Shown here: positions 39,386-64,000 of the stretch, piece by piece
Position numbering within the stretch: position 1 is the stretch's first letter
How the letters are laid out: every line of letters starts with the position of its first letter
IMG/VR virus record: IMGVR_UViG_3300013132_005385
Location: 1-64,000 of that record
DNA length: 64,000 bases
Direction: 5' to 3' (one strand)
Source: a virus
The notes under the pieces: model-generated
The model's input: the letters and a program-made list of their open reading frames with translations, nothing else
Databases searched by the model: none
Told to the model about the DNA's origin: nothing
Position numbers and translations under genes: made by a program

Positions 39386-39392
39386 AAGACAA

Positions 39393-40363: not shown

Positions 40364-40379
40364 AAAATAAAAAATAAAA

Positions 40380-40979
40380 ATGGGAACTAAAATATTATCA
40401 TGGGAGGAATTCAGTAAGGAAAAAAAACAGCCTGATGTACCTCTTTTTAGCGACGATAACATGGCTAAAATACCTACTGAAGAAATCGATGGAATTGAAG
40501 AGGAGGAGGACGAGGATGCCATAGATTCTGAAGAAGTAAAGACGTTAAAGAATCAAACCGATGTCCAATCGGACGAGGACGATACTGAGGAAGAAGATAC
40601 TGAGGAAGAAGATACTGAGGAAGAAGATACTGAAGAGGAAGACGAGGACGATACTGAGGAGGAAGATACTGAGGAAGAAGATACTGAAGAGGAAGACGAG
40701 GACGATACTGAGGAAGAAGACGATACTGAGGAAGAAGACGAGGACGATACTGAGGAAGAAGATACTGAGGAAGAAGACGAGGACGATACTGAGGAAGAAG
40801 ATACTGAGGAAGAAGATACTGAAGAGGAAGACGAGGACGATACTGAGGAAGAAGATACTGAAGAGGAAGACGAGGACGATACTGAGGAAGAAGACGAGGA
40901 CGACCAGACCGAAGATGAAGATAGCGCGGAATCTACGGAGGAGCCAGTGGTAATAAGATTTGATACCTTTTTAGATTAA
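40380..40979 (+). CDS. Highly acidic low-complexity protein
   Basis: MGTKILSWEEF N-terminus, long (DTEEE/DEDD)n tract, C-terminal VVIRFDTFLD. Confidence 0.75.
   Translation: MGTKILSWEEFSKEKKQPDVPLFSDDNMAKIPTEEIDGIEEEEDEDAIDSEEVKTLKNQTDVQSDEDDTEEEDTEEEDTEEEDTEEEDEDDTEEEDTEEEDTEEEDEDDTEEEDDTEEEDEDDTEEEDTEEEDEDDTEEEDTEEEDTEEEDEDDTEEEDTEEEDEDDTEEEDEDDQTEDEDSAESTEEPVVIRFDTFLD
40570..40920 (+). repeat. Coding tandem repeat GATACTGAGGAAGAA with GACGAGGAC inserts
   Basis: Read directly in sequence. Confidence 0.95.
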
Positions 40980-40999
40980 AAAAATAAATATCGGCAGGA

Positions 41000-41024
41000 A
41001 AAAGCCTACCCTCGGTAGGCTTTT
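41000..41024 (+). terminator. Rho-independent terminator
   Basis: AAAAGCCTACC-CTC-GGTAGGCTTTT followed by ATTTTG. Confidence 0.8.
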
Positions 41025-41048
41025 ATTTTGTTTGCGAATATATACATT

Positions 41049-42533
41049 ATGCCTATAGAACAGTTATCGGATTTTAAATTTAAGGGAATAAAGGGTAAGG
41101 AAAAAATGCCAACCGTTATAATACTAACGGGTAGACTTGGCAAAAATGGAAAAGCCCCAACTACCGATAAGATAGCAAAAATTTGCGAGTCTAAAGGAGC
41201 TCCTTGTATAATAGTGAATTCTGAAAAGGGAGTGGTTGAAAAAACACAGAGCGGAATAGTTTTGGTTGGAAATAAGAACGAGAAGCTCAGAGAAATATAT
41301 CTAGATAACACTGTGGTTCTAGCCAGAAGAACAGCCATAAACAATAATGCCTCCAAGACATTTTTTAAAAAATTGGAAGAATTAGGACTTCCGTGCGTTA
41401 ATACATACGATGCGGTCAATCTTTGTGAGGATAAATTACAAACCACAAGGGCATTACAAAGAAACAAGATCCCTGTACCCAAAACAGCCTTGGTTTCTGG
41501 AGAAGATGATATTGACAAATCAGTTAAGGAGGTAGGAGGAAAATTCCCGATTGTTTGTAAATTTATCTCCGGTACTAAAGGTATTGGAGTATTCAGCGTT
41601 GATTCAAGACCTAGCTTAGTTTCTACCCTTCAAGCAATGTGGAATTTATCTCCATCAACGGAGATAGTTATGCAAGAGAAGATAGAAGCTGATTATGACC
41701 TTAGAATACATGTTTTAGGAACAAGTGATGGAATGGGAGGCAGAGAATATAAAGTTATTGCCGCTATGAAAAGATTAAAAATAGAGGGTGATTTTAGAAC
41801 TAATTTTTCATTAGGCGGAGAAATAGAAGCTGTTGAGCTTGACAAAAAAACAAAAAAGATAGCAATAGAATCAGCTAAGGCAGTCGGCTGTCTTTGGGCA
41901 GGAGTTGATATCATTATAGATAAAAATACTGGAGATCCATATGTTCTAGAAGTTAACTCTTCCCCTGGAACGGATGGCATAGAAAAAGCCACGGGGATGA
42001 ATATTAGCCAAATTATTGCCGACTTTTTGGCTAATAAAGATAACTGGCTAAAACCTAAAAAAATTAGCGGATTTAGAGAAATAGTAACGATCCCGGGTGT
42101 TGGAAGCTTTGTAGCAAAACTAGACACCGGAAACGGAGCAGCGTCATGTTCCTTGCATGCTGATACTGTTGATGAAGAAGATGGATACCTAATATGGAGC
42201 ATGGGGGGAGAAACATATAGAAATAAAATACTAGGAACCTCAAGAGCTGAAGTTGGAAAAAATCTTCATATTAGGCCAATCATATCTTTAGATGTTGAAT
42301 TTAATGGTGCCAATTATAGAAAAATAAGATTCTCTTTGGTCGATAGAACAGAAAAGAGTACCCCTGTACTATTAAACAGAGATTTTATGTCTCTCGCAGG
42401 AATAGTAGTTGATCCCTCAGAAGATTTTATATTAACAGATCGTCCCGATGGATATTCGCCAAAAGACGCCAAGGGTAATCCAAAAGCAGGAGTTGTTATG
42501 GGAGACGACTCAGATGAGGATAATGACAATTAA
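41049..42533 (+). CDS. rimK: RimK-family ATP-grasp ligase fused to a C-terminal RimB-like retropepsin protease
   Basis: CEDKLQT, IPVPKT, FPIVCK..GTKGIGV, DLRIHV, GDFRTNFSLGG, AGVDI, LEVNSSPG; C-terminal AKLDTGN...SLHA...RP...FSLVDR...PVLLNRDF. Start moved to ATG 41049 after the late motif (41037-41044). Confidence 0.9.
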   Translation: MPIEQLSDFKFKGIKGKEKMPTVIILTGRLGKNGKAPTTDKIAKICESKGAPCIIVNSEKGVVEKTQSGIVLVGNKNEKLREIYLDNTVVLARRTAINNNASKTFFKKLEELGLPCVNTYDAVNLCEDKLQTTRALQRNKIPVPKTALVSGEDDIDKSVKEVGGKFPIVCKFISGTKGIGVFSVDSRPSLVSTLQAMWNLSPSTEIVMQEKIEADYDLRIHVLGTSDGMGGREYKVIAAMKRLKIEGDFRTNFSLGGEIEAVELDKKTKKIAIESAKAVGCLWAGVDIIIDKNTGDPYVLEVNSSPGTDGIEKATGMNISQIIADFLANKDNWLKPKKISGFREIVTIPGVGSFVAKLDTGNGAASCSLHADTVDEEDGYLIWSMGGETYRNKILGTSRAEVGKNLHIRPIISLDVEFNGANYRKIRFSLVDRTEKSTPVLLNRDFMSLAGIVVDPSEDFILTDRPDGYSPKDAKGNPKAGVVMGDDSDEDNDN

Positions 42534-48903: not shown

Positions 48904-50625
48904 TTAGACGATACCACCAGTTGGCATTGAAACGTACAATGTCAAGTACATGGACTGTGGGTGGTGACCAGCCTCTACAAGCGCATATCTTGATTTGACA
49001 GCGATTTTTGGAGACATAGTACCTTCTGAGATAGTCTGGATAGATTCAGCCATCATGTAAGGCATGAATTTCAATCCTGGCTCATCATCAGCACCTTTTC
49101 TACCAACAAGCACTCTAGTGTCGTTGAAGTTCATGTTTTGATCAACATAAACGGTCATACCAGCAAGAGAACCTACAGGGTACAAAGTACCGTTGTTCTG
49201 AGTAAGAGTGTTAGTGAAAGGAGCGAAAGTGAACTGGCTGATATCTTGCAACGCAGACGCAACTTGTGAGTTGGTAACGATGAAGTTAGCAGGACCTCTT
49301 CTTCCTCTGTTAGCTACTACGTTAGCAGCTGCAAGGACTCTAGAGAACAATCTTCTTTGTAGAGTAGATTGGTTTTCGAAAGAAGTACCTGAAGGACCAG
49401 CTGGGATAGCCATTGTGAATCCAGTGTTGTCTTTTCCGATGTAAGCAGATGTAACAGAAGCACTACCAGACAACTGAAGATTAAGGTTAAGGTTTGTTCC
49501 CTCTGTGTTCTTAAACTCGTTGTGGTTTGACCAACCAAGTGCAAAAGCTCTTGAAAGGATGTGCTTGTTGATCGCCTGAGAAACCTCGTTAACGAGAGCG
49601 TTTTCGATCATAGAAACTACGTCAATACCGAATTGCTTGTTAAGGTCTTGGATTTGCTCAGTTGTTACAGAAGCAGCAACTTGGAAAGTACCAGCTTCTA
49701 CGAACTTAGTGAAAGTAGAAAGACCAAGTGACTTGTAGTAAGTGCTTTCTCCTATTCCTCTGCTCATTGGATCATAAACCTGAGTTCCGTCTACGTAAGG
49801 ACCTTGGAAATTAGCGGTATTGTTAACTCCAGCACCACTAAATCCTTGGATGTGATCTTCTAAGGTTTTAACCAATTGAGCAGCTGCAGATACGAAAGAT
49901 AATGCTGAACCTGTAGATCCAGAAGAAGCTGTAGTATCGTTATCCAGCGCGGCTCTAATTTCAGAGTTAGCAGTAACTGCATCAGCAATAGAATCGTTAT
50001 TTGTTAAAGCTGTAACTTTGAAGATAGGGAATCCGTCGATACGAGAATATCCTACGAATGCACCTTTAAGAGTTGGGTCTGTACCTGCGGTTGTTCCTGT
50101 TACGAAGATAACATATTGAGTACCAACAGTTAAAGTACCAAATACCGGAGATGCAGCAGATACTGGAACTTTGATTAAATCTGGGGAGTTCGCAGTGAAA
50201 GGTGAAGTTGTATCACTTCCTGTAAGTTTTCCACCTGCATAAACATAGTCAAGGTAGGAAAGAACTCCAGTTGGACCGCTCATAGGAATAACCGGAACGA
50301 TGTCAAAACCGATAGTTTTTGCAGCTACCTGAATAGCTAGAGGAAGAAGGGATGGGAATTTGTCGCCAGATCCAAGACCAGTTCCTGAATATGTTCCACC
50401 AGCGTAGAATCCAGCAGGACCTTGTCCAAGATTTCCGGCAGCAGTGATTGCGCCCATACCATTGAGTACGCCAAGAGAGTTATACGCTCCGGCAGACTCG
50501 TTAAGAGAGTGGAAGTGGCAGTAAGTTGAAAGCCATTCTACTTTACCTCTCTCAGTGAGACCTGTTTTGCTCTCGATTATCGGAGCCCAGGTTTCATAAA
50601 TTTCATGTTGATTAATTAGTTGCAT
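48904..50625 (-). CDS. Major capsid protein (T4 gp23-like)
   Basis: WAPIIE, DIVPVIPMSGPTG, EQIQDL..QFGIDV...LVNEVSQAINKHI, RGRRGPANFIV, FMPY, PKIAVKSRYAL; LNE cleavage site near residue 43. Confidence 0.95.
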   Translation of the reverse strand: MQLINQHEIYETWAPIIESKTGLTERGKVEWLSTYCHFHSLNESAGAYNSLGVLNGMGAITAAGNLGQGPAGFYAGGTYSGTGLGSGDKFPSLLPLAIQVAAKTIGFDIVPVIPMSGPTGVLSYLDYVYAGGKLTGSDTTSPFTANSPDLIKVPVSAASPVFGTLTVGTQYVIFVTGTTAGTDPTLKGAFVGYSRIDGFPIFKVTALTNNDSIADAVTANSEIRAALDNDTTASSGSTGSALSFVSAAAQLVKTLEDHIQGFSGAGVNNTANFQGPYVDGTQVYDPMSRGIGESTYYKSLGLSTFTKFVEAGTFQVAASVTTEQIQDLNKQFGIDVVSMIENALVNEVSQAINKHILSRAFALGWSNHNEFKNTEGTNLNLNLQLSGSASVTSAYIGKDNTGFTMAIPAGPSGTSFENQSTLQRRLFSRVLAAANVVANRGRRGPANFIVTNSQVASALQDISQFTFAPFTNTLTQNNGTLYPVGSLAGMTVYVDQNMNFNDTRVLVGRKGADDEPGLKFMPYMMAESIQTISEGTMSPKIAVKSRYALVEAGHHPQSMYLTLYVSMPTGGIV

Positions 50626-50637
50626 GATATTTTAGAG

Positions 50638-52638
50638 TTATTTTTTGAATTTCTTTTCCAATTCAGCTGCTATGTTTGTCAGATAATCTGATCCATAACC
50701 TTTAGCTGGCTGTGATTGGTTCTGAGATTCGTCTAATTTTTGAACGTTAGATGATTGGTTTCTAAATCCTCTAGTAGCCCAGAAGTTATTGATCTGATAA
50801 GGGGTTTCAAGTTTATAAAACTTGCTTTGAGCAATAACCGAAGCTTTTTGAGTTTGGTTTAAGCTTTCCCAAATTGGAACGATATCCTTTGGCATCATAT
50901 CTAGGAATTTTTCGCCAGATTTAACTTGTTCAGTTAGAGCGGATCCCATAATTTGAATTACATCCGTACCCGAATTGTAATTCTGCTCGTTTAGAGCCTT
51001 AACGACCTTGTGTTTTTCGGCCTCGTTGAGAGATAAAAATCCTTTTTTAGTCTGATCGTCGACCAGTTTTAGGAAAGAATATTTATTCTCATTTATGATC
51101 TCATCTGTTTTTTGTTTGTTAACAGATTCTATGAGTTGATCTACTTTTTCAGTTAATGAAGAGTAATCTCCAGAAAGTTTTGAGGTTCTTTTTCCTTCTT
51201 TAACAGATTCTGAAACCTCTTCAACCAAAGAATTTTCTTTGGACTTTTTACCTTTATTTAAAGATTCTGCTACATATTCAGTGAATCCTATATTAGTAGA
51301 AAGTTTTTCAGCTAAATAGTCAGAATAGGAAATAGTTCTATCAAGGTTTTCTGCGATATACTCAGAGTATGAAATGTTTTTGTCTAAGTTTTCAGCAAGA
51401 TACTCAGAGTATGAAATATTCTTATCAAGGTTTTCTGCGATATACTCAGAGTATGAAATGTTTTTGTCTAAGTTTTCAGCAAGATACTCAGTGTAGGAAA
51501 TATTTTGGTCTAAACTCTCAGCAAGATACTCAGAGTATGAAATATTTTTATCCAAGTTCTCAGCAAGGTATTTGCTATAAGAAATATTTTTATCTAAATT
51601 TTCTCCCAAATACTCAGAGTAGGAGATGTTATTATCTACGTGCTCTGCTATGTACTTAGAATACGAAATTGCCTTATCTAGGTTTTCAGCTAAATACTTG
51701 TTATATGATATGGATCCTTCTAGATTCTCAGCAAGATAATCACCATATTTAATAGCAGTTTCTAAATTTTCAGCAAGATAATCTGCGTATTTTTCTAGCT
51801 TCGCCACTCTCGCTGCTAACTTGGAATCTGTTCCTGCTTGTGAACTTTCGTTTAGTGGAGCAGTTTTTAATTTGGCAACCTGACTTTTGATACCCTCCAT
51901 TTCTTTTTTCAAAATGAGAGAATATTCATTAAGCTCTTCGGCTGTAACAAAATTTTGGTCCATATTTTTTGGTTTATTTGAGCTTTCTTTTAGTAGTTTC
52001 TCTATCTTTTCTACGTCTTTGATTCTATATATCTGAACGTTTGAATTTTTCTCCAGCCCCATGCTTTCATTGATATTGGAGAGAGACGATATAATAGAAG
52101 ATTCCATTGATCCTTGAAGAGCCTGCATTCCTAAGCTTTCATATACTCTTTCAAGTTCAGCTGCTTTTCCAAATCCGCCATCAGCAACAAGATCATAAGT
52201 AAAGATCTTTTTAATCTCTACCTTTTTATTCTCTTGTACTGATCCAGCTGCTCTGGATGAAATAGAGATAGGAATTCCTGCATCAACTAGGCTTTTAGCA
52301 ATTTTACCAGCAGGGGTATCGAGCAATTTCACTCTAATTCTTACTGTTCTGTCACCTTTGTTATATTTAAGATCCTGTACTATGTGTGAGATATTCTTAA
52401 GTGAAACATCGAATTCTTTAGGGTGATCCAATTCACCAACTAATCTTTTGGAATTAATTTTATCTTGAAGATATTCCATATGAGGAAGGTATTCTTGCTC
52501 CTCATATATTCTTCTGTTTTCGTTCTCTTTCCCAAAAACAGCAGCTACACCTTCAAGGATGTAATCTTTGCCGCTTTTTTTAGCAGTCAAATTAGAGCTT
52601 GACTTTTCGAGAATCAGTATGTAATCCTTATCTTTCAT
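50638..52638 (-). CDS. Prohead core protease (T4 gp21-like) fused to scaffold-like repeat domain
   Basis: LEGVAA..ENENRRIY, GELDHP, SH, LLDTPAG, ISSRAAGSV, TYDLVADGGF; long helical C-terminus. Confidence 0.92.
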   Translation of the reverse strand: MKDKDYILILEKSSSNLTAKKSGKDYILEGVAAVFGKENENRRIYEEQEYLPHMEYLQDKINSKRLVGELDHPKEFDVSLKNISHIVQDLKYNKGDRTVRIRVKLLDTPAGKIAKSLVDAGIPISISSRAAGSVQENKKVEIKKIFTYDLVADGGFGKAAELERVYESLGMQALQGSMESSIISSLSNINESMGLEKNSNVQIYRIKDVEKIEKLLKESSNKPKNMDQNFVTAEELNEYSLILKKEMEGIKSQVAKLKTAPLNESSQAGTDSKLAARVAKLEKYADYLAENLETAIKYGDYLAENLEGSISYNKYLAENLDKAISYSKYIAEHVDNNISYSEYLGENLDKNISYSKYLAENLDKNISYSEYLAESLDQNISYTEYLAENLDKNISYSEYIAENLDKNISYSEYLAENLDKNISYSEYIAENLDRTISYSDYLAEKLSTNIGFTEYVAESLNKGKKSKENSLVEEVSESVKEGKRTSKLSGDYSSLTEKVDQLIESVNKQKTDEIINENKYSFLKLVDDQTKKGFLSLNEAEKHKVVKALNEQNYNSGTDVIQIMGSALTEQVKSGEKFLDMMPKDIVPIWESLNQTQKASVIAQSKFYKLETPYQINNFWATRGFRNQSSNVQKLDESQNQSQPAKGYGSDYLTNIAAELEKKFKK
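51247..51792 (-). repeat. 13 x 42-bp (14-aa) coding repeat SYSEYLAENLDKNI
   Basis: Counted from translation. Confidence 0.95.
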
Positions 52639-52653
52639 TTTCTGTAATTAGAT

Positions 52654-52661
52654 TATATATC
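52654..52661 (-). promoter_or_regulatory. Putative late promoter GATATATA for protease-capsid operon
   Basis: 15 nt upstream of the protease ATG. Confidence 0.7.
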
Positions 52662-52692
52662 TTTAGATCTTTGGATTTCTTTCCTTAGATTA

Positions 52693-55083
52693 TTATTCTT
52701 CTGTTTCTTCTACTTCTCCGGATACCCCGTCAGTTAATTCTTCCATGGCCTCCGATAATTTTTCCAGATCTTCTTCCTTAAGATCCTTAATATTTTCTTC
52801 TACCTTAGAATTATTTTTATTAAGCATAGCCAATCCTTGTTTACAAGCATCCAGGGCGTTATCAAAATCTGCTGGACTGCCAGTTAAAGGATCTTTAGTT
52901 TTAAATCTAGGAAGAGCGGGAATTTCGTCCATGTCTGTTACGATATCTTTGAAGAATCCTGCTATACCTTCTTCGCCAACTATTCCCTGTATACTCGATT
53001 CTATCGATTCACCAGCATAGGTTTGAAAATTTTTCTTAATCTGACTCCATGCCGAAACTGCCTTACCGTCTCCATTGTCGGTATAAGTACCTCTACAAAG
53101 AACTAATGTAGACATTATTGCAAGGAGATCCTGTGATGATACCGTTCCTTTTAAACTGTTGGATAATCCCCTAGCCATAGCATTAACAGCAATATTTTCA
53201 ATATAGCCATTAAAGACTAAAACAGTAACCGGCTGTCTATCTGATCCTACCCATTTAGCTATTGTAGATCCACCTACAGCGCCAGAAGCGAGAGTAATAG
53301 CTCCAGCAGTAGTTCCTAAACTACCCGCTGCTCCAACTGCTCCTGCGAGACCGCTTGCCCCTAGAGAAGATGCTCCGAGTAGGGTTCCTCCAACAGGTAT
53401 AGCAATGCCAGCAGCTCCAGCAGTGACAATTACTGCACCAACTAGAATTCCAGCAACAATTGCTCCTTTAGAGAAATCCCCCCACCATTCACTCCAGCTT
53501 TCATCGTAATACACTGTATATGCACCATTTCTAACTGGCTTATATCCTTTCCAGATTATTTCCTCATTTTTCTTTTCCCCTTCCCCGCCTTCGTCTTTTT
53601 TAGCTTTGATACACTCGAGATCTATTTGTTCAGTTTCTATTGATTTATTCAAACACTCTTCAGGAATTTTATATCCTATAGTTTTGCTTTTATCCTCTTC
53701 CGCTACCAGTTTATATGACGGATTTTTTGAAATAGTTTGCGCAAATGAATCAAATCTTAGCACCGGAACTCCCTCGTTGAACTCAGCTTCAAATATTCTA
53801 TCTTTTAAATACTTATCAAATCCGATGGATTCTTTTGCTGCGCTGTCTATTGTTTTTATCTTTCTTTCGATGTCTTTTTCTTCCAGAGCCATAATGGAAT
53901 CATATCCGTCTTTGGTTAGATCTCCAACTAGACTGATGTCTTTGTTTTTATTGAGATATCCAAGAATTATATTTACACATTTGGATGTTCCCTTTCCATA
54001 TTTACCATCGGCTTTTCCTCTTGATTCTAGGAAAGTAGCAATTGCAGGAAATAACTCCATTATTTTAGTTTGAAGCTTTTGTACTTCTTCACACTTTGCT
54101 GATCCCACTCTAACAGGAAAAGTACATTTACCTGTCGGTGTTGGTGTTGGTGTTGGTTTTGTTTCGTCTTTAACTTCCGGTTTTGGAACCACAACAACAG
54201 GAATTGGCTGAGGTGTATAAGAGATCTCTGCTTTAGTTAGCAATAAATCTTTTATTCTTCTGTACTCTTTTTTCTGTCTGATTATTTCGTTAATTAATGA
54301 ATCAATCTTAACCTTATAATCTTTTCTTTTATATTGTGTTCCTCCTGCTGTAACTATCTTAAGTCCTTTCCTGTCTACCAGTTGAAGATTCTTGGCTTGA
54401 ACTAGTAGATCGTTTGCAGTTTTTTCAAATTTCTGAACCTGAGGATCCTCAGCCATTAATTTTGTGTATTTGTCTCTAGTGATTTCACCAGTGAATGCTA
54501 ATGCAGCATCCATCGCTTCTTTTGATCTATCAAAAGCAGGGCCTTCAAATTGACCAGACTCAACATTTGATTCCTCGCCTGTTTTACGATCCTGTTCGAG
54601 TATAGATGATTCTTTTATATTTGATATCTTGGTCTTCTTTAGATCGTTAGCCCTATTTTGAAGGTCAGCCTTAAAATTTCTGACCATTTCACCTATAGTT
54701 TGGCTAACTTTAGAAAATGCCTTTTCATCTTTCAGTATTGGCTCTAGAGGAATTAAATTTGATTCTATGAATTTTACGTTCTGCTCCGCATAATTTTTAT
54801 CGATCTTTCCTGATACAGCCAAGCTTTTTGCTGATTGCATTACGGAATTTTTAAACGATGCAAAATCCTTGGAAGATACAATTTTACTACCAACAAAAGA
54901 TTCAAATCCTTCCGGAGTTTTATATGCTTCCTCTTTTGAATCTAATACCATGGTGAATAGAGTACTAAGTGATGCAGTTAAATTCACTGCGGGATCCACT
55001 TTAGTGTCCTTCTCATAAAGTTTAGATGTTTTGAGCATGCTCTCAAATACTGGATTAGCCCCCTTGTAAATGTTTTGATTCAT
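52693..55083 (-). CDS. Large putative ejection protein with PG-binding-like domain and Gly/Ala-rich membrane segment
   Basis: GSAKCEEVQKLQ...ADGKYGKGT; hydrophobic GAIVAGILVGAVIVTAGAAGIAIPVGG; PT linker; N-terminus similar to 44536..46734. Confidence 0.6.
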   Translation of the reverse strand: MNQNIYKGANPVFESMLKTSKLYEKDTKVDPAVNLTASLSTLFTMVLDSKEEAYKTPEGFESFVGSKIVSSKDFASFKNSVMQSAKSLAVSGKIDKNYAEQNVKFIESNLIPLEPILKDEKAFSKVSQTIGEMVRNFKADLQNRANDLKKTKISNIKESSILEQDRKTGEESNVESGQFEGPAFDRSKEAMDAALAFTGEITRDKYTKLMAEDPQVQKFEKTANDLLVQAKNLQLVDRKGLKIVTAGGTQYKRKDYKVKIDSLINEIIRQKKEYRRIKDLLLTKAEISYTPQPIPVVVVPKPEVKDETKPTPTPTPTGKCTFPVRVGSAKCEEVQKLQTKIMELFPAIATFLESRGKADGKYGKGTSKCVNIILGYLNKNKDISLVGDLTKDGYDSIMALEEKDIERKIKTIDSAAKESIGFDKYLKDRIFEAEFNEGVPVLRFDSFAQTISKNPSYKLVAEEDKSKTIGYKIPEECLNKSIETEQIDLECIKAKKDEGGEGEKKNEEIIWKGYKPVRNGAYTVYYDESWSEWWGDFSKGAIVAGILVGAVIVTAGAAGIAIPVGGTLLGASSLGASGLAGAVGAAGSLGTTAGAITLASGAVGGSTIAKWVGSDRQPVTVLVFNGYIENIAVNAMARGLSNSLKGTVSSQDLLAIMSTLVLCRGTYTDNGDGKAVSAWSQIKKNFQTYAGESIESSIQGIVGEEGIAGFFKDIVTDMDEIPALPRFKTKDPLTGSPADFDNALDACKQGLAMLNKNNSKVEENIKDLKEEDLEKLSEAMEELTDGVSGEVEETEE

Positions 55084-55086
55084 GAT

Positions 55087-55848
55087 TTATTCATTATATA
55101 TTTTCGAATAGGCCTTAGAAATTAGATCTATTAGTTTTTCTATATATCCTTCATTCCTTAACTTTTTAAAGGCTAGATTTTCCACTGAAAATTCCCCGCT
55201 GTTAGCTAGTCCCTCTTTTCTTGATTTTAAAATTCTAGACTTTACCCTCTGCGTGTGATCATATAATTCCCTGGCTTCTTCCTCTGAGGATACTGATGTT
55301 GAAAGCTTATTTTCCAGTTCGTGTATATCATTTACGAAGCCATGAAATTTCACGTCAACGTCTCTGTAGTCTATTTGGGGATCTGTTGGTTTTGGGACTC
55401 TGATCCATTCATTACGTAGGAGTGAAAAAAGTCCAGAAGATGTGTGTGGTTCTTCTATATCCTGCACGTAAAGCTCAACGTCATGAGATCTGATAATCAC
55501 ATCATGCCTTAGATTCCAGATAAACCTCTGTCCATCTAATCCCTTTTTAACTAGTTCCACATTAGGATCTACCCTAGAAAAATCTATTAGAACGTGAATA
55601 TCAAGGTCTGAATATTTGGTCCAATTATAGTTTGCTAATGACCCCGTTAATTGTATATCAGCTATAGGAACATCGACTTTCATATCGCCAAAAAAATCTT
55701 TGGCTATTTCCAATAATTTTTTTCTTACCCCCTGGTCAAATTCGCCATCTTCAGTCCAGAAAGAAGAATTCAATTCTTTTTTATAGAATTCATCCCTGAC
55801 CTCTTCCTGTTCTATGATCCATGATTCTAATTTTGCTATATGTGACAA
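55087..55848 (-). CDS. Pol-beta superfamily nucleotidyltransferase
   Basis: LTGSLANYNWTKYSDLDIH (GS..DxD) and DVELYVQD; TTG start. Confidence 0.8.
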   Translation of the reverse strand: MSHIAKLESWIIEQEEVRDEFYKKELNSSFWTEDGEFDQGVRKKLLEIAKDFFGDMKVDVPIADIQLTGSLANYNWTKYSDLDIHVLIDFSRVDPNVELVKKGLDGQRFIWNLRHDVIIRSHDVELYVQDIEEPHTSSGLFSLLRNEWIRVPKPTDPQIDYRDVDVKFHGFVNDIHELENKLSTSVSSEEEARELYDHTQRVKSRILKSRKEGLANSGEFSVENLAFKKLRNEGYIEKLIDLISKAYSKIYNE

Positions 55849-55864
55849 TGCTGGAATTTTTTTC

Positions 55865-55872
55865 TATATATC
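55865..55872 (-). promoter_or_regulatory. Putative late promoter GATATATA
   Basis: Just after a terminator, before the nucleotidyltransferase. Confidence 0.65.
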
Positions 55873-55895
55873 CATATTGTCTAACCAAAGGCCGC

Positions 55896-55918
55896 AAAAA
55901 AAGCGGCAGAAGCCGCTT
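55896..55918 (-). terminator. Rho-independent terminator
   Basis: AAGCGGC-TTCT-GCCGCTT followed by T-tract on minus strand. Confidence 0.8.
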
Positions 55919-55939
55919 GATGTGAATACTGGGTGTAAA

Positions 55940-56638
55940 TTAAAAGCTCATTTTAAGAAAGCATTCCATCGTCACCCTTACGTCTCCCTCGCAGTATTTT
56001 TTAATTCCCTCAAAATTCTTATTGTTCCAAAATTCCCCATGTACCATTGCCCCGTTCATTTCGTCTTTAGGAGAGCTTACTCCTAGAACGCATGACATCA
56101 GATCCAGTGATGTGTATGTCTGACCCCAAGCTCCAAAGGAGAATATTTCTGCAATATCCAGAAATCCAGTTTCCCATGGTTTTTTACTCCAGACTTGAAT
56201 CAGAGACGATGGCTCTATACTATTAATTAGCATCCTTTTCCCTAGAGTGGGGATATCAAAGTTTTTGATGGTGTGTCCCCCCAGTCTCCATCCTTTTCCC
56301 CGGGAATTCTCTAACACCTTATTGGTCTTATTTAGAATATCCGACTCATCGTCAGAACAAAAAGAATTTATTCTAATGTTCATATTTTGATCAAAAGCTC
56401 CCATAGAAACACAAACGACCCTTGAGAATTCCGCATGTAGTGCTGATTTTTTAAGCCAAAATTCGTCATCGGATGAATTTTGATCCTCTGGAGAATTTTT
56501 TCTTAGCCATACGCTTCTTTTTAACCAAAGTTCGTATAGTCTTGGGTCTGATGCTTCTAGATCTCTTAATGTCTGATATGCACCCGTAGTCTCTATGTCA
56601 AAAAATAGAGTGGTTTGAAGATGTTGCTTCGTTATCAT
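55940..56638 (-). CDS. Predicted 3'-5' exonuclease related to PolB exonuclease domain
   Basis: FFDIET, LHAEFSRVVC, GHTIKNFDIP, YCEGDV (DEDDy). Confidence 0.88.
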   Translation of the reverse strand: MITKQHLQTTLFFDIETTGAYQTLRDLEASDPRLYELWLKRSVWLRKNSPEDQNSSDDEFWLKKSALHAEFSRVVCVSMGAFDQNMNIRINSFCSDDESDILNKTNKVLENSRGKGWRLGGHTIKNFDIPTLGKRMLINSIEPSSLIQVWSKKPWETGFLDIAEIFSFGAWGQTYTSLDLMSCVLGVSSPKDEMNGAMVHGEFWNNKNFEGIKKYCEGDVRVTMECFLKMSF

Positions 56639-56662
56639 TGATATATAAAATTAAAAATTACA

Positions 56663-56896
56663 ATGTCTGAATATTCTAAACTTGGATATAAAAACATATC
56701 CGCTCAAGATTCTATATCCAGGGGAGAGACTTTTGTTTCGGATACTCCTTCAGGTGATCAATTAACATATGGAAATTTTGTTAACCTTAAGAAGGTCGGA
56801 AACTGGGGAATGCCTGGACAAACTCTACAGAATATGAAAACAATAGAGGAGTTTTTAAAATCTGGAGAGATTGCGGGAAAGATAGTGGAAAAATAA
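56663..56896 (+). CDS. Small hypothetical protein with C-terminal CTS-like motif
   Basis: GATATATA at 56640-56647; NMKTIEEFLK. Confidence 0.55.
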   Translation: MSEYSKLGYKNISAQDSISRGETFVSDTPSGDQLTYGNFVNLKKVGNWGMPGQTLQNMKTIEEFLKSGEIAGKIVEK

Positions 56897-56897
56897 A

Positions 56898-57698
56898 TTA
56901 TTTTCTCCATTTTTTATCGATCCAAAATCTTCTTCCTGTCTTATCCACTATCCCAATCGCTCTATCTTTCCTTTGATAGAATTGGACCCAATCCTGGAAA
57001 GTATTCCACTTTTCTCCCTGTTGATCCTCGTAATTATACCAGTCCTTAAATTGCCCGCCTCCTAGAACATAGGCTTCCTGTGGTATTTGTTTACAGAGAT
57101 GAAAAAGCTCATCTCCATGTTTTTCTATATAGACACAAGCAGGCCAAGTGGGATCGCAATCTATTCTTCCCAGAATCTCTGCTCTAAGATAATTTCCTAT
57201 GCCATTAAACCATTTTTGATTCATGATTAGTTCTAATATTGGTTTTTTGAAATCCCTATTTGAGATGCTGGATATAATGTTACTGATAAACTCGGGATGT
57301 TCTTTAACTGGATCTGGACCTCTATCCTGACTCCAAGAATCTGACCATTTCCATCTTGCGAATCTTCTCACATCATGAAGACATAATGTTCCAGCGTTCG
57401 AAGAAAAAATTAAATGGGAGTGTTTTGGATAGATCTCGCCTGGAGCGACGAATGCCCAATTGGCTGACATTCCCATCATGAAAAACATCGAGAGATTTTT
57501 GCCTCCAAAATCAAAGGTCATTCTGAGTTCTTTTCCTCTGCTGTCAGCTTTAATCTTAAATTGTAAGTTTTCGTTGAGCGGGGAAAGATCTGTATTAGAC
57601 TTCTTTTCTTCGCTTTTTCTGGCAGATCTGTAATAGATCCCAGAGGATTTGGAGTTGATGAACTCCGACATAATTCTTATCTCTGATAGTTCGGGCAT
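56898..57698 (-). CDS. nei: Fpg/Nei-family DNA glycosylase, NEIL1-like (zincless finger)
   Basis: MPELSE catalytic N-terminus, RGKELR, GMS, DVRRFARW, H2TH NGIGNYLRAEIL, DKTGRRFW. Confidence 0.92.
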   Translation of the reverse strand: MPELSEIRIMSEFINSKSSGIYYRSARKSEEKKSNTDLSPLNENLQFKIKADSRGKELRMTFDFGGKNLSMFFMMGMSANWAFVAPGEIYPKHSHLIFSSNAGTLCLHDVRRFARWKWSDSWSQDRGPDPVKEHPEFISNIISSISNRDFKKPILELIMNQKWFNGIGNYLRAEILGRIDCDPTWPACVYIEKHGDELFHLCKQIPQEAYVLGGGQFKDWYNYEDQQGEKWNTFQDWVQFYQRKDRAIGIVDKTGRRFWIDKKWRK

Positions 57699-57731
57699 AG
57701 TAATTTTTTACCCAAATATAGATTAAAAAAA

Positions 57732-58511
57732 TTAAATTTTATCAGGATCCGGTAAACTATTATCAAAAATTATATCAAGATTTATCCCATATGGATTCAT
57801 TTCGTCTCTGGTTAGAGTGGTTCCATGTGGGAGATAAATGATCATAGGGGAAGTACCCTTTGGCCAGGAAGAAGCCGCTAGAAAGAGAGATTCTTTATAT
57901 GTCAAGCTTCCCTGGTTTGTTGGAAATGATGTGCTGCGAAAAATTATAGGGATTTTATTTGATGCTGTTACACCGGGTAGCAGATCCTTAACTGAAAAAA
58001 GACTTGGCTTATCATCATTAATCACGCAGATCCTATTCTTCAATGAGTCCGGAAGAAGATAATGGAATTCGCAAAATCTCTCCATAATACCTTTTCTATC
58101 ACCCTGTGCACTACCAATATGGATTATTAGGGGCGATACGAAATCGGAAGGAAGCTTAAGTAGATCCATCATTCCACCTATAAGTTTGATCTCGCTAACT
58201 GCCTTTTCCTCTGTATTGGTATCAGTGGTTGAAAAGTAGTTACCTGATTTAATATAGAATCCAATTCTAAATTTTAGATCCTCAATAAAATGATTTATTC
58301 TTTCGATTTCAGAATCCGACGGAATGAAAGATTTTTCAAAGTCCCAATCAGTGATCTCAAAAATAAAACATGTGTGTCCAGTGGGGATTAGCTCCTTGAT
58401 CTTATCACAGATCTCTCTGGTGAGATTGACGGGTTTAGACCTCGACGGCCTTTCCAGTCTGATAATTATTCCCGTCCTCGTTTTTATTCCGTTATAAATG
58501 TTTCCAAGCAT
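57732..58511 (-). CDS. UV-damage endonuclease (UvdE)-like protein, degenerate
   Basis: IIHIGSAQG, RICVINDDK, FSVKDLL, IPIIF; several metal ligands appear lost. Confidence 0.6.
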   Translation of the reverse strand: MLGNIYNGIKTRTGIIIRLERPSRSKPVNLTREICDKIKELIPTGHTCFIFEITDWDFEKSFIPSDSEIERINHFIEDLKFRIGFYIKSGNYFSTTDTNTEEKAVSEIKLIGGMMDLLKLPSDFVSPLIIHIGSAQGDRKGIMERFCEFHYLLPDSLKNRICVINDDKPSLFSVKDLLPGVTASNKIPIIFRSTSFPTNQGSLTYKESLFLAASSWPKGTSPMIIYLPHGTTLTRDEMNPYGINLDIIFDNSLPDPDKI

Positions 58512-58559
58512 TATTTTCCCTGTATAATACTTTCTATTGGAAAATTAATAAATGTTTCT

Positions 58560-59348
58560 CTAAAACGCTTTAAATTCGTCTATAGACATCTTAGGCCATG
58601 ATTCAATTGCACTCGATGGAGATAGGTTAGCTATTTTTATTCCCCTATTACTTAGCTCTCTCCCTAACTGGGCATATTCATCATCAATGAGTTTCGTATT
58701 TCTAGATAAAACATGGTTTCCTGTTTTTGAAAAGAAGTGATTTGGTGTGAAATCAACACCGACCAAACCAATCTTTGATGCCCCCAACTGGTAAGCAACT
58801 ATCACCGCCATATATGGGGAATTCATGGTGTAGTCAACTTTGCTTCTGTCATCTAAATTTAATTTTCCTCTGGATCCAAGGTTAATCTTTACTAATGATC
58901 TTCTATTGTTTAATACTCCAGGATCTATATGACTAAGAATAACCGGGGATTTTGATCTCGTGACCCATTCGAATCTTCCCCTAGAAAATGTTCTTTGGTG
59001 ATTAACAACAACCAAATAATTTGGCGTTAAAATTCTTTCAACATCATTAATCCCAACAACCAAAAAATCAGAGAAATCATTAAATTGGTTTAACGACTCC
59101 CCACACCCAGCAACTATAAAAGGTTTCCCCTTTTGCGAGTCTATATAATCTGGGGAAAAATTAGCCCCAATGTAAGTGTTTATGTTTTGTGTTTGTATTC
59201 TGCCTTCCAGTGGAACTAATGATTCATTTAAACCTTCTGTGGGAATTGAATCATTTTGAACTTCATTCTTTCTACCAAACAAGAATGAATTTCCTCTAAA
59301 TATCTCTTTGGAAATCTGCATTCTTCTTCTTTTCTCTTCTATATTCAT
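58560..59348 (-). CDS. DUF115/Maf-like (sialyltransferase-like fold) putative glycosyltransferase
   Basis: IVAGCGESLN, VVGIND, NSPYMAVIVAYQLGASKIGLVGVDF, HFF, IANLS. Confidence 0.65.
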   Translation of the reverse strand: MNIEEKRRRMQISKEIFRGNSFLFGRKNEVQNDSIPTEGLNESLVPLEGRIQTQNINTYIGANFSPDYIDSQKGKPFIVAGCGESLNQFNDFSDFLVVGINDVERILTPNYLVVVNHQRTFSRGRFEWVTRSKSPVILSHIDPGVLNNRRSLVKINLGSRGKLNLDDRSKVDYTMNSPYMAVIVAYQLGASKIGLVGVDFTPNHFFSKTGNHVLSRNTKLIDDEYAQLGRELSNRGIKIANLSPSSAIESWPKMSIDEFKAF

Positions 59349-60187
59349 TACTTGAAAAGGCTTAACATATTATAGACTTTTTCTCCGTAAGTATCCTTAG
59401 CTTCTCCATAAGAGATGGAGTTTTTTTCTGGAAATCTAGAGACTAGAATACTATATGCTCCCTTTTCATTTCTATTATGAAGGGTTGCTATCGACATAAG
59501 ATCCTTAATTAATGGCCCGCATTCATTCAGATCTGGATGATTATTAAAGAATGTTTCTATCTCCGTGGCCTTTATATGATCGATTAAATCTTTCCCGTGT
59601 GTAGGTTTTGATATGTGTATACAATCCCCCTTTAATTCGGTTTGGTAATCAGAATCTTCTTCAAGCTTTATGAAATACCCAGTCCCCATAGGACCGACTA
59701 TTCTACCATTTTGATCCTCGGATAACTCTGAGTCCCAATCTTTCGATTCCATTGATCCCCAAACTATTTTTCCACCGGAATACTTTGCGTTCTGAGCAAC
59801 CCTTTCCCCTGCAGTGATATTTGCTTTCATCGGGGACTTAATATTCCCAGTGTCCAGGTTAAATTCTATTGTTCCGGGGATTGTTTCGTAAACCTTTTTA
59901 GTTTTAACACTCTGAATTGTAACCAGTGAATATTTTCCATCCTCAGATATCTTAGCGGAAATAACTTGACCCAAAACTTTATTCTTAAGTCCTTTAACAT
60001 TAGCTTTCACATAGTCTCCATTTCTAAAAGCAGAATCTTTTATGTCCTTCGTGGGATCCACCGTGATTTCTGAACTTCTGGAAAGATCCCTATATGGATG
60101 ATAATTAACCTTGAAAACCCCATTAGAACTATTAAATGAGGATCCTGTTAGGGTTTGTGAAAAAAACTCATATAATCTCTTGATCAT
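59348..60187 (-). CDS. Hypothetical protein (CTS-like MIKRLYEF)
   Basis: 279 aa, translationally coupled. Confidence 0.6.
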   Translation of the reverse strand: MIKRLYEFFSQTLTGSSFNSSNGVFKVNYHPYRDLSRSSEITVDPTKDIKDSAFRNGDYVKANVKGLKNKVLGQVISAKISEDGKYSLVTIQSVKTKKVYETIPGTIEFNLDTGNIKSPMKANITAGERVAQNAKYSGGKIVWGSMESKDWDSELSEDQNGRIVGPMGTGYFIKLEEDSDYQTELKGDCIHISKPTHGKDLIDHIKATEIETFFNNHPDLNECGPLIKDLMSIATLHNRNEKGAYSILVSRFPEKNSISYGEAKDTYGEKVYNMLSLFK

Positions 60188-60190
60188 TTC

Positions 60191-60727
60191 TTAGTTCTTT
60201 TTTTTATATGAATCCATTAGATCCTTAATCTTTGAGGCCAACTCATAGTTCTCTTCCTTAATGGCTTCTTCCAGCCTCATATTCAAATCCTTCTGACTAT
60301 CCTGAGGAGATTCATTTTTTCTAATAGGTTCAACTCTTTCCTGTGAAATTGCTATGATTGGTGAAAATAAAATTTCTAGTACAGAATCATTTATGGGAAC
60401 GTATATTCTGTCTTCCTCGTGTACATCGTCATTTTCAGATTCCTCTGAAATATCAATTTCCCATTCCCCGTTAACCCATATGATGCTCCATGGTCCATAA
60501 TTTAATTCAGGGAGGTCATTATCTATGGCGTAATTTATTATGGCCAAAACCTCTTCCTTTATTAATTCACTAGACATTTTCTCTCCTTTGACAATCTTTT
60601 TTATTCCCGGAATTTTAGTTGGCTCTACACCAACGCTTCTCTTTAGCATTTTATAGATCTTTAGAACTAAGTCCCAATCAATAGAATCTATTACCCTGTC
60701 TACTAAAATCTTGTTTTTTGGATTCAT
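60191..60727 (-). CDS. Protein with C-terminal UVR (UvrB/UvrC) motif
   Basis: LNMRLEEAIKEENYELASKIKDLM. Confidence 0.7.
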   Translation of the reverse strand: MNPKNKILVDRVIDSIDWDLVLKIYKMLKRSVGVEPTKIPGIKKIVKGEKMSSELIKEEVLAIINYAIDNDLPELNYGPWSIIWVNGEWEIDISEESENDDVHEEDRIYVPINDSVLEILFSPIIAISQERVEPIRKNESPQDSQKDLNMRLEEAIKEENYELASKIKDLMDSYKKKN

Positions 60728-60739
60728 GCAATTGTTTTT

Positions 60740-63700
60740 TTATGCGTCTATATCATCGATCACAAGAGCCTCCGAATCGTCGAAGAATCTTAATCTCAAA
60801 GGTTGACCAGTTGAGTAATTCTTTTTATATATGGTACAGGAATAATCCTGATACACGTAGGTAGCTGGGGTGAAATCTATATTGCTAACTTGACATTCCG
60901 TAATATTATATTGGAAATTATTTAATATGATATTGCCATCTCCAGGAGATCCTGATCCAGCACCAAATAAATGCCTGATTGTGTTATTAGTGAAATTATC
61001 TTCTATTGAATTAAGATTAAAAAGCCCTCTAATTTCATTTTCTAAGAAATCATTTCCAATTGAATTGTGAGCAAAATCATTATCAATATAATTGGACGAA
61101 AATCCGCTTCCTATCCTATTATTGTAAAATGTCCCATATATTCTGTTATTATAGGCTCCGTCACCTATAATATTAAACTGCATCTCAAATTTAACTGTAT
61201 TTTCCCCTATTATGCCGAAGGAGTTATTTGCGGACAAACTTCCGAGATCATTCGAATAAGAAATGTTATAGAACACATTATTGGAGAGGAGAAATGTTCC
61301 GGAATTGAGAGCAAAAATTGAGTGGTTACCAATCTTATTATCCGCTGTTAAATATAGATTATTAAAAGTGGTAAATTCACTATATGATCCCGTGTTGTTG
61401 TCATATGAAAGTATATAATCACCAGTGGGAACTGCAGCATAATAATTTACCCCTGTTGATGCGTATGAATAATTATTCGACACCAAAGTTGCCGATGTGT
61501 TTGTTGTAATTAACGAGATCTTAAAGCTTAACCCCCCAACTAAAATTACGTCTCCATTAGAAAGTTCTGTTGTAAAAAGGGTTCCAACCCCAGTCAACGA
61601 TGTACCCGAAATGGTAACGGTGCCCGTTTTTACCGAACCTTGTGAGTAATTCTCATATCTTTTAAACTCAACACTTCGGTGATCATAATCCGTTCTGTTG
61701 CCAAGATCGTCTATTCTTTCTGTGATCCTGCCCTTCGCTGGAGCTCCCATAACCTCAGTTGTATTAAAGAATATGTCATATTTTAATTCGTCTGCTGGAT
61801 AAATTAAAGACCAAGCATTAGGAGCTAATGTGCTTCCGCTAGTTGCCAGCACACAAATAGGTTCAATCGATGATGTTTTCGTCGTAACTGATCCTTTTGG
61901 TGTGTATGTTAAAGAGCCATCGAAAGTAAAATCTGGCTGGTCGTAAACTGTCTGATAGTCGCTGATAACATATAACGTTCCCGGAGATAAAGATCCAGGA
62001 CTGGAAGTTATAGTATTGTATAAAGCGCTGTATGTGGTGACGATAATTCCTCCTAAGCTTCCTGGACCTGTCATACCTGTGGGTCCAGTGGGTCCGATGT
62101 TTCCTTGTAATGTAACTATTGAAATAGAAGTAGATCCAGATCCCTTAATTTCAATGTTGCTCCCAGATCCCACCGTGTAATCTACTCTAACCCAGAATCT
62201 TTCCCCCGCCTGTACATCTAATATTGCATTAGCTGTTATGACTTCGTCGGGTGTATATGATGCTTCAGACAGAATTGAATTATACCCTCTGAATCCATCA
62301 ACAGCCAATGGCCCTGATGTATTCTTCATTAAATCCGTTACGATTTTAGATTCCCCTCCTGTTACAGAATGTGTGACTGTAACCCTATATGAAATTAGGT
62401 ATCTTCCACTTTGAAGTATTTCCACGTATGTTCCAGTCTGTCCGGAATTGGTAAAGTTATTATATGAGTAATATGAACCATCTACTATTGGGTATGTGTC
62501 CAATAAAACCGGGGATGTTGATCCTGAAGATAGTGCAGGCTGAGATCCTAATCTATATCCATTAAATGAATATAAACTTGTGGGAATTCCTATAGGACCT
62601 GTGGGACCAATATTCCCGATAGGACCAATATCCCCAGTTGGTCCAGAATCACCTGTGGGACCAACACTCCCTGTTGGGCCTGTCTCTCCAGTAGATCCCG
62701 ATATTCCCGTAGGACCAGTAGCACCAGTAGTCCCTGTAGGTCCAAATATGGTGTAACCTGCATAAACCCACGAGGATGTTCCAGAATTCCACTGGTAAAC
62801 TTGTCCGTCGTTACCGTCTATATAAAGATCCCCGTCTATGCCCGAAAATATAGGCATACCAAATCCTGTGTATATCCCAGGTCCTTTATCTCCGGTTGGG
62901 CCTGTCTCTCCGGTGGCACCAAATCCAGTCATACCCGTGGGACCTGTTGATCCGGTAAACCCTGTTTGTCCTTGAGCTCCGGTAAACCCTGTTTGTCCTT
63001 GAGCTCCGGTAGGTCCAATAGTACCAACAGATCCTATTGGTCCTTGTGCTCCTGTTGGACCTGTTGATCCAGTAAAACCAGTAGTTCCTGCAGTTCCTGC
63101 TGCTCCGGTTGGTCCAGTTACCCCAGTAGCTCCAGTTGGCCCGGTTGGCCCAGTTGGCCCGGTTGACCCAGTTGTGCCAGTGTCGCCTGTGGGTCCTCCA
63201 GAAGGTCCAGTTGGACCTGTAAGTCCTGTAGCACCAGTTGATCCATTAGATCCAGTTGTTCCCGATAGAAAAGAAACCCAAGCATCAAATCCGTCTATGC
63301 CTCCAGAAAGACTTCCAGACGAGATGTTTGTTGACACAGTTCCCGTAATCAGTACAGCGTGTGAATTGGCAGATGCTCCTAAACCAGCATTTGCTATGAT
63401 GGTAACGGTGTTAAGAGAAAATGAGGCAAGACAGGGAACTGATAAATTTTGGAGAATATTAGTTACTAAAAGCTCCGCCGTGGTCACATTATCAATAGTC
63501 CAGGAAGCTGTTCCTGCTAAAACCGGACCTCCACCATTATCATAGTAAACCGATATGGTTTGTCCAGATGATCCCCCTGAATTAATATCAAATTGAAAAG
63601 TTGCCTTAGTCTCGCCAAAACTTAAATATCCTTGGTAGTCGTCGCCAGTAAATCTGACCTGTCCGACCAATCCAGGCTGAAGAGTTGGAAGAGGAGCAGT

Positions 63701-63913
63701 CCTATCCTCTATGAGTCTAAGTCTTCCCCCTGAATTTTTATTTCCAACCACGGCATGCCTGCCTATGAATATATCATTAATAAGGTTAATTCCCGATGCG
63801 AGAATTTCGCCATTATCTCCTTTAATCTCTATAGATGGATTTCCCGAGACCGGCAAATTAATAAGGTTTGCCTTAATAATGTTAGTGTTAAGCCTGCCCG
63901 TGGGAAAATTCAA
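60740..63913 (-). CDS. Collagen-like fibre protein (GXT repeats, BclA/C1q-like domain, C-terminal beta-helix-like repeats); start uncertain
   Basis: Long GPT/GAT tracts; [10 protein letters not shown] (C1q/TNF-like strand); NxIGxxFxxN repeats. Confidence 0.75.
62585..63262 (-). repeat. Collagen-like Gly-X-Thr coding repeats (two blocks)
   Basis: [10 protein letters not shown]... read from translation, interrupted by a DGDLYID..VYQW domain. Confidence 0.9.
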
Positions 63914-64000
63914 GGATTTATCCTGAATGCTTATTCCAAAAGCTTTATTTAGAATAGCAAATCCTTGTCTTAATTGATCAAAATTACTATTTGAAACCTG

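Follow-up and report, generated by a model that had tools for sequence, protein, structure and literature searches.

NEIL1, a DNA glycosylase of base-excision repair, is usually treated as an animal enzyme. Whether phages encode it too, and what this would say about its origin, is the question raised by a gene in a viral DNA stretch of 64,000 nucleotides (positions 1 to 64,000 of the IMG/VR virus record IMGVR_UViG_3300013132_005385), which was analysed as a whole and is called the window below. A preliminary description, made from the letters of the window alone, had pointed to a phage glycosylase collinear with animal NEIL1. The gene is an open reading frame (ORF) of 266 amino acids (aa) on the minus strand that starts with MPELSE and fills exactly positions 56898-57698. 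We consider it highly likely that it encodes a working NEIL1-type bifunctional glycosylase/apurinic-apyrimidinic (AP) lyase of a T4-like, probably jumbo, aquatic phage, which together with the products of the neighbouring genes would most likely form a cassette for the repair of sunlight damage.

The ten NEIL1 motifs that had been picked out along the catalytic domain can all be read in the translation, and in a HMMER alignment they face the same motifs of human NEIL1: RGKELR (residues 54-59), GMS (76-78), P.H.HL.F (91-98), LC..D.RRF.RW (105-116), W...RGP (122-128), F..PI.E (150-156), the helix-two-turn-helix (H2TH) string FNGIGNYLRAEIL (164-176), LC...P.E...LGG, F..W...Y and D..GR..W (252-259). 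The H2TH string is identical in human NEIL1 over all 13 residues. Met1, Pro2 and Glu3 do not vary among the 23 family members aligned, nor among the 18 rows of a second alignment that includes animals, protists and E. coli MutM and Nei; Lys56, Asn169 and Arg256, as well as Gly166 and Gly168 of the H2TH motif, are invariant in the same two alignments. Pro2, Glu3, Lys56, Asn169 and Arg256 of the phage protein pair with Pro2, Glu3, Lys54, Asn176 and Arg277 of human NEIL1, and Met77, Arg111 and Phe113 stand opposite its Met81, Arg118 and Phe120. The catalytic roles of Pro2, Glu3 and Lys54, and the functions of the NEIL1 residues aligned with phage Met77, Arg111, Phe113, Asn169 and Arg256, are those described in the literature on NEIL1 and Fpg. 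The likeness to human and animal NEIL1 (PDB 1TDH, 5ITX and the series of entries beginning with 6LW) comprises the Pro2/Glu3/Lys set, the void-filling Met/Arg/Phe positions, the H2TH string and the arginine of the zincless finger. Membership in the wider superfamily is given by Pfam PF01149, which matches residues 1-116 above its curated cut-off (37.8 against 25.5 bits).

Within this superfamily, NEIL1 stands out. In a phmmer search of the PDB, the 15 best distinct sequences were all human NEIL1 (E 1.9e-34 to 5.1e-33, about 118-123 bits), a match far beyond chance; they were followed by mimivirus Nei1 (1.5e-8), T. thermophilus MutM (6.8e-6) and E. coli Nei (5.8e-3), while NEIL2 and NEIL3 were unlisted at E <= 1. 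The best score of human NEIL1 was 122.6 bits, against 37.7 for mimivirus Nei1 and at most 28.9 for bacterial Fpg/Nei. Residues 1-187 and 194-260 of the phage protein form the two aligned stretches, the second pairing with NEIL1 221-281, so that the proposed collinearity extends across the whole catalytic domain, finger included. With a profile of 23 family members, NEIL1 reached 2.7e-63 (217 bits), compared with 5.9e-19 (72 bits) for L. lactis Fpg, 4.8e-15 for plant Fpg, 6.2e-15 for mimivirus Nei1, 6.4e-7 for E. coli Nei, 2.1e-5 for mimivirus L720, 1.7e-3 for NEIL2 and 0.036 for NEIL3. The reverse search with amphioxus NEIL1 found human NEIL1 (3.8e-103) and then bacterial MutM (7.8e-6), with mimivirus Nei1 unlisted at E <= 1e-3. 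Taken together, the forward, profile and reverse scores place the phage clade much nearer to NEIL1 than mimivirus Nei1 is. Animal NEIL1 proteins match the phage protein at E 1e-34 to 1e-26 and are 30-38% identical to it. None of the NCBIfam models is passed, the equivalogs for fpg (TIGR00577, 63.3 against a cut-off of 203.3) and nei (NF007763, 30.6 against 252) being far out of reach.

The fold leads to the same relative. An AlphaFold2 model built from the 23-row alignment has a mean predicted local distance difference test score (pLDDT) of 91.6 and a predicted template modelling score (pTM) of 0.88, with helices in the H2TH region at pLDDT 94-98. When it was compared with the PDB by Foldseek, the 31 rows listed down to rank 50 were all human NEIL1 (best E 4.3e-25, about 30% identity), at template modelling (TM) scores of 0.77-0.86, or 0.83-0.86 for full-length chains. 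Bacterial Fpg/MutM and E. coli Nei share with the phage protein the PF01149 superfamily, the N-terminal PE, a probable H2TH motif and the loop motif GG..(K/R)D(F/W), but they have a C4 zinc finger. In the 18-row alignment, where E. coli MutM and Nei have CxxC...CxxC, the phage protein shows a gap or a residue other than cysteine, and its C-terminal third holds a single cysteine; therefore no C4 zinc finger is present, as the preliminary description had stated. The model has strands at residues 247-251 and 257-261, which form a hairpin carrying Arg256; judged by alignment and model, this C-terminal hairpin is a zincless finger that keeps the DNA-binding arginine equivalent to human Arg277.

The differences from animal NEIL1 concern additions and one loop. 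The phage protein ends six residues past the finger (266 aa, against 377-568 aa for the animal proteins named), whereas animal NEIL1 continues into a C-terminal tail, which is probably a eukaryotic addition rather than a defining trait of the clade. Animal NEIL1 also has a helical insert after the H2TH motif and another insert in the N-terminal sandwich, both missing from the phage protein. After LGG, the phage protein has GGGQFKDW followed by about 12 residues, a loop of Fpg-like length that resembles GGTTLKDF and its loop in E. coli MutM in both length and motif, whereas the corresponding animal loop (with Lys242) is shortened. In the phage loop, which lies at residues 213-233, the model reaches its lowest confidence (pLDDT 75-78).

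The trees agree with the searches. From 438 matches to a hidden Markov model (HMM) of the family we kept 395; ingroup rows had to span HMM position <=5 to >=255, 11 outgroup rows were kept whatever their coverage, and long proteins were trimmed to the matched region. The outgroup consisted of E. coli MutM and Nei, three phage Fpg and up to six Marinimicrobia Fpg; mimivirus Nei1 and Nei2, NEIL2, NEIL3 and plant Fpg were compared by PDB-chain scores only. Three sets were used: 177 rows (identity thinning at 62% for unnamed and 80% for named sequences), 115 rows (47-60% for most groups and 70% for protist rows, three outgroup rows dropped) and 63 rows (41-50% for most groups and 60% for protists, 13 named rows that were redundant or of unusual composition left out). 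The NEIL1-like clade, which unites the phage protein and its short relatives with eukaryotic NEIL1, was separated from the outgroup with a support of 100 in FastTree (177 rows), and of 100 and 99 in quick IQ-TREE runs under LG+C20 with posterior mean site frequencies (PMSF; 115 and 63 rows). In the same order, the eukaryotes formed one clade with support 99 (41 rows), 98 (27 rows) and 89 (12 rows). The preliminary description would have been refuted by a branching with ordinary bacterial Fpg/Nei; the trees instead put the protein into the NEIL1 clade. NEIL1 is its closest relative by sequence, profile, fold and tree. Within the clade, the phage protein groups with sequences from three other IMG/VR loci (L011, L013 and L019) in a clade of 10 rows (support 99, 177-row FastTree), and a Marinimicrobia sequence falls into its wider group (support 94 with 177 rows and 92 with 63 rows, not starred).

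Since a phage gene product so similar to animal proteins is unusual, and IMG/VR contigs are computational predictions, it has to be considered that a piece of eukaryotic or other cellular DNA was joined to a viral contig by faulty assembly, or was itself wrongly classed as viral. The window belongs to a virus record of 119,741 bp, about 39% complete. About 6 kb from the glycosylase gene and on the same strand lie genes for a Gp23-type major capsid protein (E 9.5e-41) and a prohead protease; nearly all large ORFs of the window use one strand, and the gene sits in a dense same-strand run. Its GC content (0.387) is close to that of the window (0.365), its identity to animal NEIL1 does not exceed the 30-38% given above, and it is without the animal inserts and tail. 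Moreover, the block formed by the UvdE-like, NEIL1-like, exonuclease and nucleotidyltransferase genes recurs in 18-23 of 80 independent viral loci. An artefact of this kind is hardly credible against these observations. The source contig is probably that of a T4-like phage, and since related contigs reach 219-318 kb, probably of a jumbo one. Megablast of positions 50000-64000 against 50,697 deposited phage records gave no match. At the protein level the same records hold no close relative: nine match, all below 30% identity (24-28%), and these are classical Fpg types. Such Fpg of cultured phages (Bacillus phages SP-10 and G, Acinetobacter phage MD-2021a) are phage-encoded members of the Fpg/Nei family too, but their place in the tree is with bacterial Fpg in the outgroup.

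The family is large. In a collection of 5.8 billion proteins, 1,111 of 1,411 candidates matched at E <= 1e-3; the best 120 of them are 196-304 aa long, and many carry PF09292. Representatives at 50% identity number 1,082 at E <= 1e-3, 339 at 1e-10 and 102 at 1e-30. A scan of IMG/VR with a pattern from the single protein gave no relative; the alignment-based scan then gave 440 pattern matches, 367 of which encode one. The reading frames are intact throughout the family loci examined. Where members of the nearest ESM Atlas clusters have a record, which few do, 63-100% are viral, mostly Uroviricota; 27-67% of the members of these clusters carry PF09292.

Bacteria contribute a second group. A scan of species genomes found nine loci at 36-39% identity, eight of them in Marinimicrobia/Neomarinimicrobiota and one in an "uncultured bacterium"; it used 8-residue patterns taken from the phage protein alone and finds only genomes that share those exact strings, so that carriers outside Marinimicrobia may be missed. 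Among 301 evenly sampled genomes of this phylum, 11 gave strong matches (E 1e-68 to 1e-71), all in assemblies of 0.7-1.0 Mb, one gave a C-terminal fragment at a contig end, 39 gave only weak matches (E 7e-17 to 2e-6; ordinary Fpg) and 250 gave none. In the three carriers checked, the NEIL1-like gene is the sole PF01149 gene, which suggests that it replaced classical Fpg in a small-genome SAR406 lineage. At one locus (L004) the neighbours are metabolic and not prophage genes (PhoD-like phosphatases, a flavin monooxygenase, a fatty-acid hydroxylase and MerC). With a Marinimicrobia protein as the query, its own group was tight (51-90% identity) and everything else stood at about 41%; one 90% cluster of this group holds 1,181 member sequences. 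The large phage and marine-bacterial group of 250-300-aa proteins is the nearest known relative of eukaryotic NEIL1.

On the eukaryotic side, matches came from crustaceans, a copepod, sea urchins, a coral, a tardigrade, molluscs, amphioxus and the tuatara. Outside the animals they came from the choanoflagellate Mylnosiga, the euglenid Ploeotia and many Amoebozoa (Mastigella, Pelomyxa, Echinamoeba, Amoeba, Pyxidicula, Rhizamoeba, Endostelium and Planoprotostelium). Its presence in a choanoflagellate and a euglenid means that NEIL1 is not confined to animals. In Pelomyxa, Echinamoeba, Amoeba, Rhizamoeba and some metagenome proteins, the NEIL1-type domain is fused to a uracil-DNA glycosylase domain (PF03167), which puts two base-excision glycosylases into one chain.

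As to the origin of NEIL1, the preliminary description had invoked a phage or bacterial reservoir or horizontal transfer. Both reservoirs were found, in the 367 IMG/VR loci and in Marinimicrobia, but the direction of a transfer was not. In all three free trees the eukaryotes are drawn inside the short forms, with a backbone support of 80-94 and basal lineages that vary by tree. In the approximately unbiased (AU) test with 63 rows, a tree holding the 45 short forms as one clade lay 24.7 log-likelihood units above the free quick tree (p-AU 0.816). A placement of eukaryotic NEIL1 as nested within phage diversity was withdrawn in view of this backbone support and of the AU test, which favours the short-form clade. 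Nesting is not supported, a sister relation of eukaryotic NEIL1 and the short forms doing no worse, and which way the gene moved cannot be told from these data. It is possible, if rather doubtful, that eukaryotic NEIL1 descends from the phage/bacterial zincless-finger clade, an early eukaryote (in the lineage leading to Holozoa and Amoebozoa) having taken up the gene from a phage or bacterium, with the inserts and the C-terminal tail gained afterwards. The single eukaryote clade, the Fpg-like phage loop that is shortened in eukaryotes and the three free trees are consistent with such a descent, whereas the AU test slightly favours the sister relation without establishing it.

The gene neighbourhood bears on the function (Table 1; counts of viral loci refer to the best 80 of the 367). 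The UvdE-like gene abuts or overlaps the glycosylase start in 19 of the 19 loci that have it, and the exonuclease gene abuts the glycosylase gene in 22 of 23, lying about 5 kb away in the remaining one (L047). Of the 80 viral loci, 5 have a homologue of the 77-aa ORF in the same gap, again on the opposite strand. None of the flanking genes of the window was found in the eight Marinimicrobia loci examined. The UvdE-like protein matches PF03851 over residues 66-193 only (E 1.2e-13; 51.4 bits against a cut-off of 24) and scores 45.2 on the NCBIfam equivalog TIGR00629, whose cut-off is 124.45; because of this partial cover and low score, we regard it as a divergent UvdE-like TIM-barrel nuclease. 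In three other viral loci a different repair or replication gene stands directly beside the NEIL1-like gene: an ATP-dependent DNA ligase (L032), an RNase HII (L047), and a Rad3-like helicase with a type II topoisomerase subunit (L058).

If the enzyme works as NEIL1 does, a base that is oxidised or ring-opened would be flipped out, whereupon the N-terminal Pro2, exposed after removal of the methionine, would attack C1', aided by Glu3 and Lys56. The backbone would then be cut by beta- or beta,delta-elimination, while the H2TH motif and Arg256 of the zincless finger may hold the lesion strand. Fungal UVDE is reported to process AP sites and 3' blocks, and on this basis either UvdE or the exonuclease might clean the 3' end left by the lyase. 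In such a scheme UvdE would take the photoproducts and the NEIL1-type enzyme the oxidised or ring-opened bases, so that the glycosylase, the abutting UvdE and the nearby 3'-5' exonuclease would most likely form a phage-borne, host-independent cassette against sunlight damage to the phage genome. Phages often repurpose nucleic-acid enzymes, and the family entry in PHROGs (phrog_21295) is listed as "unknown function"; with a nucleotidyltransferase-fold protein encoded two genes downstream, one may also think of a weapon or counter-defence, i.e., an enzyme that excises modified or host-specific bases, degrades host DNA or removes bases altered by a defence system. The strict conservation of the catalytic and DNA-binding residues of lesion repair, the company of repair and replication genes (UvdE, exonuclease, ligase, RNase HII) and the occurrence of the enzyme among ordinary metabolic genes on Marinimicrobia chromosomes make this very improbable.

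Table 1. Coordinates of the features described in the text (window positions unless a locus or protein handle is given).
Feature	Position	Strand	Evidence or occurrence
NEIL1-type Fpg/Nei DNA glycosylase/AP lyase, minimal form without C-terminal tail	56898..57698	minus	ORF, PF01149, NEIL1 match, AlphaFold2 model; 80/80 viral loci
Pro2 and Glu3 codons, predicted Schiff-base nucleophile and catalytic acid	57690..57695	minus	invariant positions
Lys56 in RGKEL, opposite human NEIL1 Lys54	57531..57533	minus	HMMER alignment
H2TH motif FNGIGNYLRAEIL, residues 164-176; Asn169 opposite NEIL1 Asn176	57171..57209	minus	HMMER alignment
Zincless-finger beta-hairpin, residues 247-261; Arg256 opposite NEIL1 Arg277	56916..56960	minus	AlphaFold2 model and HMMER alignment
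UVR-motif protein	60191-60727	minus	19/80 viral loci
Unannotated protein	59348-60187	minus	19/80 viral loci
Unannotated protein	58560-59348	minus	15/80 viral loci
UvdE-like UV-damage endonuclease, directly upstream, same orientation	57732..58511	minus	19/80 viral loci
Small ORF, 77 aa, between glycosylase and exonuclease	56663..56896	plus	no Pfam match
PolB-exonuclease-like 3'-5' exonuclease, downstream, same orientation	55940..56638	minus	PF10108, E 1.5e-12; 23/80 viral loci
Nucleotidyltransferase-fold protein, two genes downstream	55087-55848	minus	PF01909, weak SidM_N-like match; 18/80 viral loci
Collagen-repeat protein, 1,057 aa	60740-63913	minus	PF01391, E 2.5e-20; homologues in 21/80 related loci
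Very large ORF, 796 aa	52693-55083	minus	no Pfam match
Very large ORF	2-4048		no Pfam match
Very large ORF	10927-15651		no Pfam match
Very large ORF	16539-19502		no Pfam match
Short run of ORFs	37678-42533	plus	sharp positive GC and AT skew at 40-42 kb
Marinimicrobia NEIL1-like loci	L004:5001-5783; also L002-L010, L094-L103
ATP-dependent DNA ligase beside NEIL1-like gene	L032:4483-5808
RNase HII beside NEIL1-like gene	L047:4791-5420
Rad3-like helicase and type II topoisomerase subunit beside NEIL1-like gene	L058:7255-10722
NEIL1-uracil-DNA glycosylase fusion proteins	P0229, P0289, P0297, P0298, P0299, P0302-P0305, P0307

Several points weigh against the view that the gene encodes a NEIL1-type enzyme working within a repair cassette. 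The Pfam match to the H2TH domain (PF06831, 23.1 bits) stays under the gathering cut-off of 34.7, and PF09292 (Neil1-DNA_bind) gave no match with the phage protein at E <= 1. With UvdE in 19 and the exonuclease in 23 of 80 loci, the cassette is a lineage-specific arrangement and not a trait of the family, and neither a PNK-type 3'-phosphatase (PF08645) nor an ATP-dependent ligase (PF01068) was found in the 119.7-kb record, which covers about 39% of the genome. Glycosylase activity in the clade, its substrate range and the cooperation with the neighbours are what we infer from the analysis, and the long Fpg-like loop means that the substrate preference may be Fpg-like and not NEIL1-like. A protein of the same fold and clade could indeed work as an Fpg, acting through this loop mainly on 8-oxoguanine and formamidopyrimidine (Fapy) purines and not on the oxidised pyrimidines and hydantoins of the NEIL1 range. 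Besides the MutM-like loop, two observations fit such a function: the next best solved relatives of the profile after NEIL1 are bacterial Fpg and not Nei, and in the three Marinimicrobia genomes the enzyme, as the only Fpg/Nei protein, may have to cover the role of Fpg. The global measures nevertheless favour NEIL1 (217 against 72 bits, TM 0.84-0.86, and the large distance to the NCBIfam Fpg cut-off), and specificity is not readable from sequence. On balance we regard the Fpg function as unlikely and retain the NEIL1-type enzyme as the preferred reading.

Elsewhere in the window, the 1,057-aa product, which carries collagen triple-helix repeats, is probably a fibre or decoration protein. Four very large ORFs (796-1,574 aa) without a Pfam match presumably encode virion structural proteins; the 796-aa product has a stretch that is rich in Gly and Ala and apparently membrane-like. 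Amid the otherwise minus-strand genome, the short run of plus-strand ORFs, with its sharp positive skews, may mark a strand switch or module boundary. No tRNA genes were found in the 64-kb window.

To our knowledge, a single viral NEIL1 "ortholog" has been published, mimivirus Nei1 (MvNei1, L315; PDB 3A42/3A45/3A46), which is much more distant and belongs to a giant virus of amoebae and not to a tailed phage. MvNei1 is called "viral NEIL1 ortholog" in a title cited by PMC3188539, and according to passages of that paper it is, like the phage protein, a virus-encoded Fpg/Nei enzyme with a zincless finger. These passages treat NEIL1 as a metazoan clade, "MeNeil1", the viral members being the mimivirus enzymes only. 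Passages of a survey of jumbo phages (PMC7824862) mention UvdE and T4 endonuclease V, while the terms Fpg, MutM and formamidopyrimidine are absent. Our full-text search, with subscription journals and supplementary files outside its reach, returned no paper on phage or bacterial NEIL1-type enzymes. The likeness is visible in the databases though undiscussed, since the pipeline of the Joint Genome Institute (JGI) labels many members, including many of the best 120 homologues, as "endonuclease VIII-like 1".

The phage and bacterial forms are small, tail-less natural versions of NEIL1, which recommends them for structural and mechanistic work. As for the phages themselves, those of aquatic habitats may bring along, besides UvdE, a base-excision step of their own that counters damage by sunlight, and in the sea a small-genome SAR406 lineage appears to use a NEIL1-type enzyme in place of Fpg. 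Given proper taxon sampling, the origin of eukaryotic NEIL1 becomes testable. If its descent from this clade were true, the ancestral, minimal form of an enzyme of human base excision would survive to this day in aquatic jumbo phages and SAR406 bacteria.

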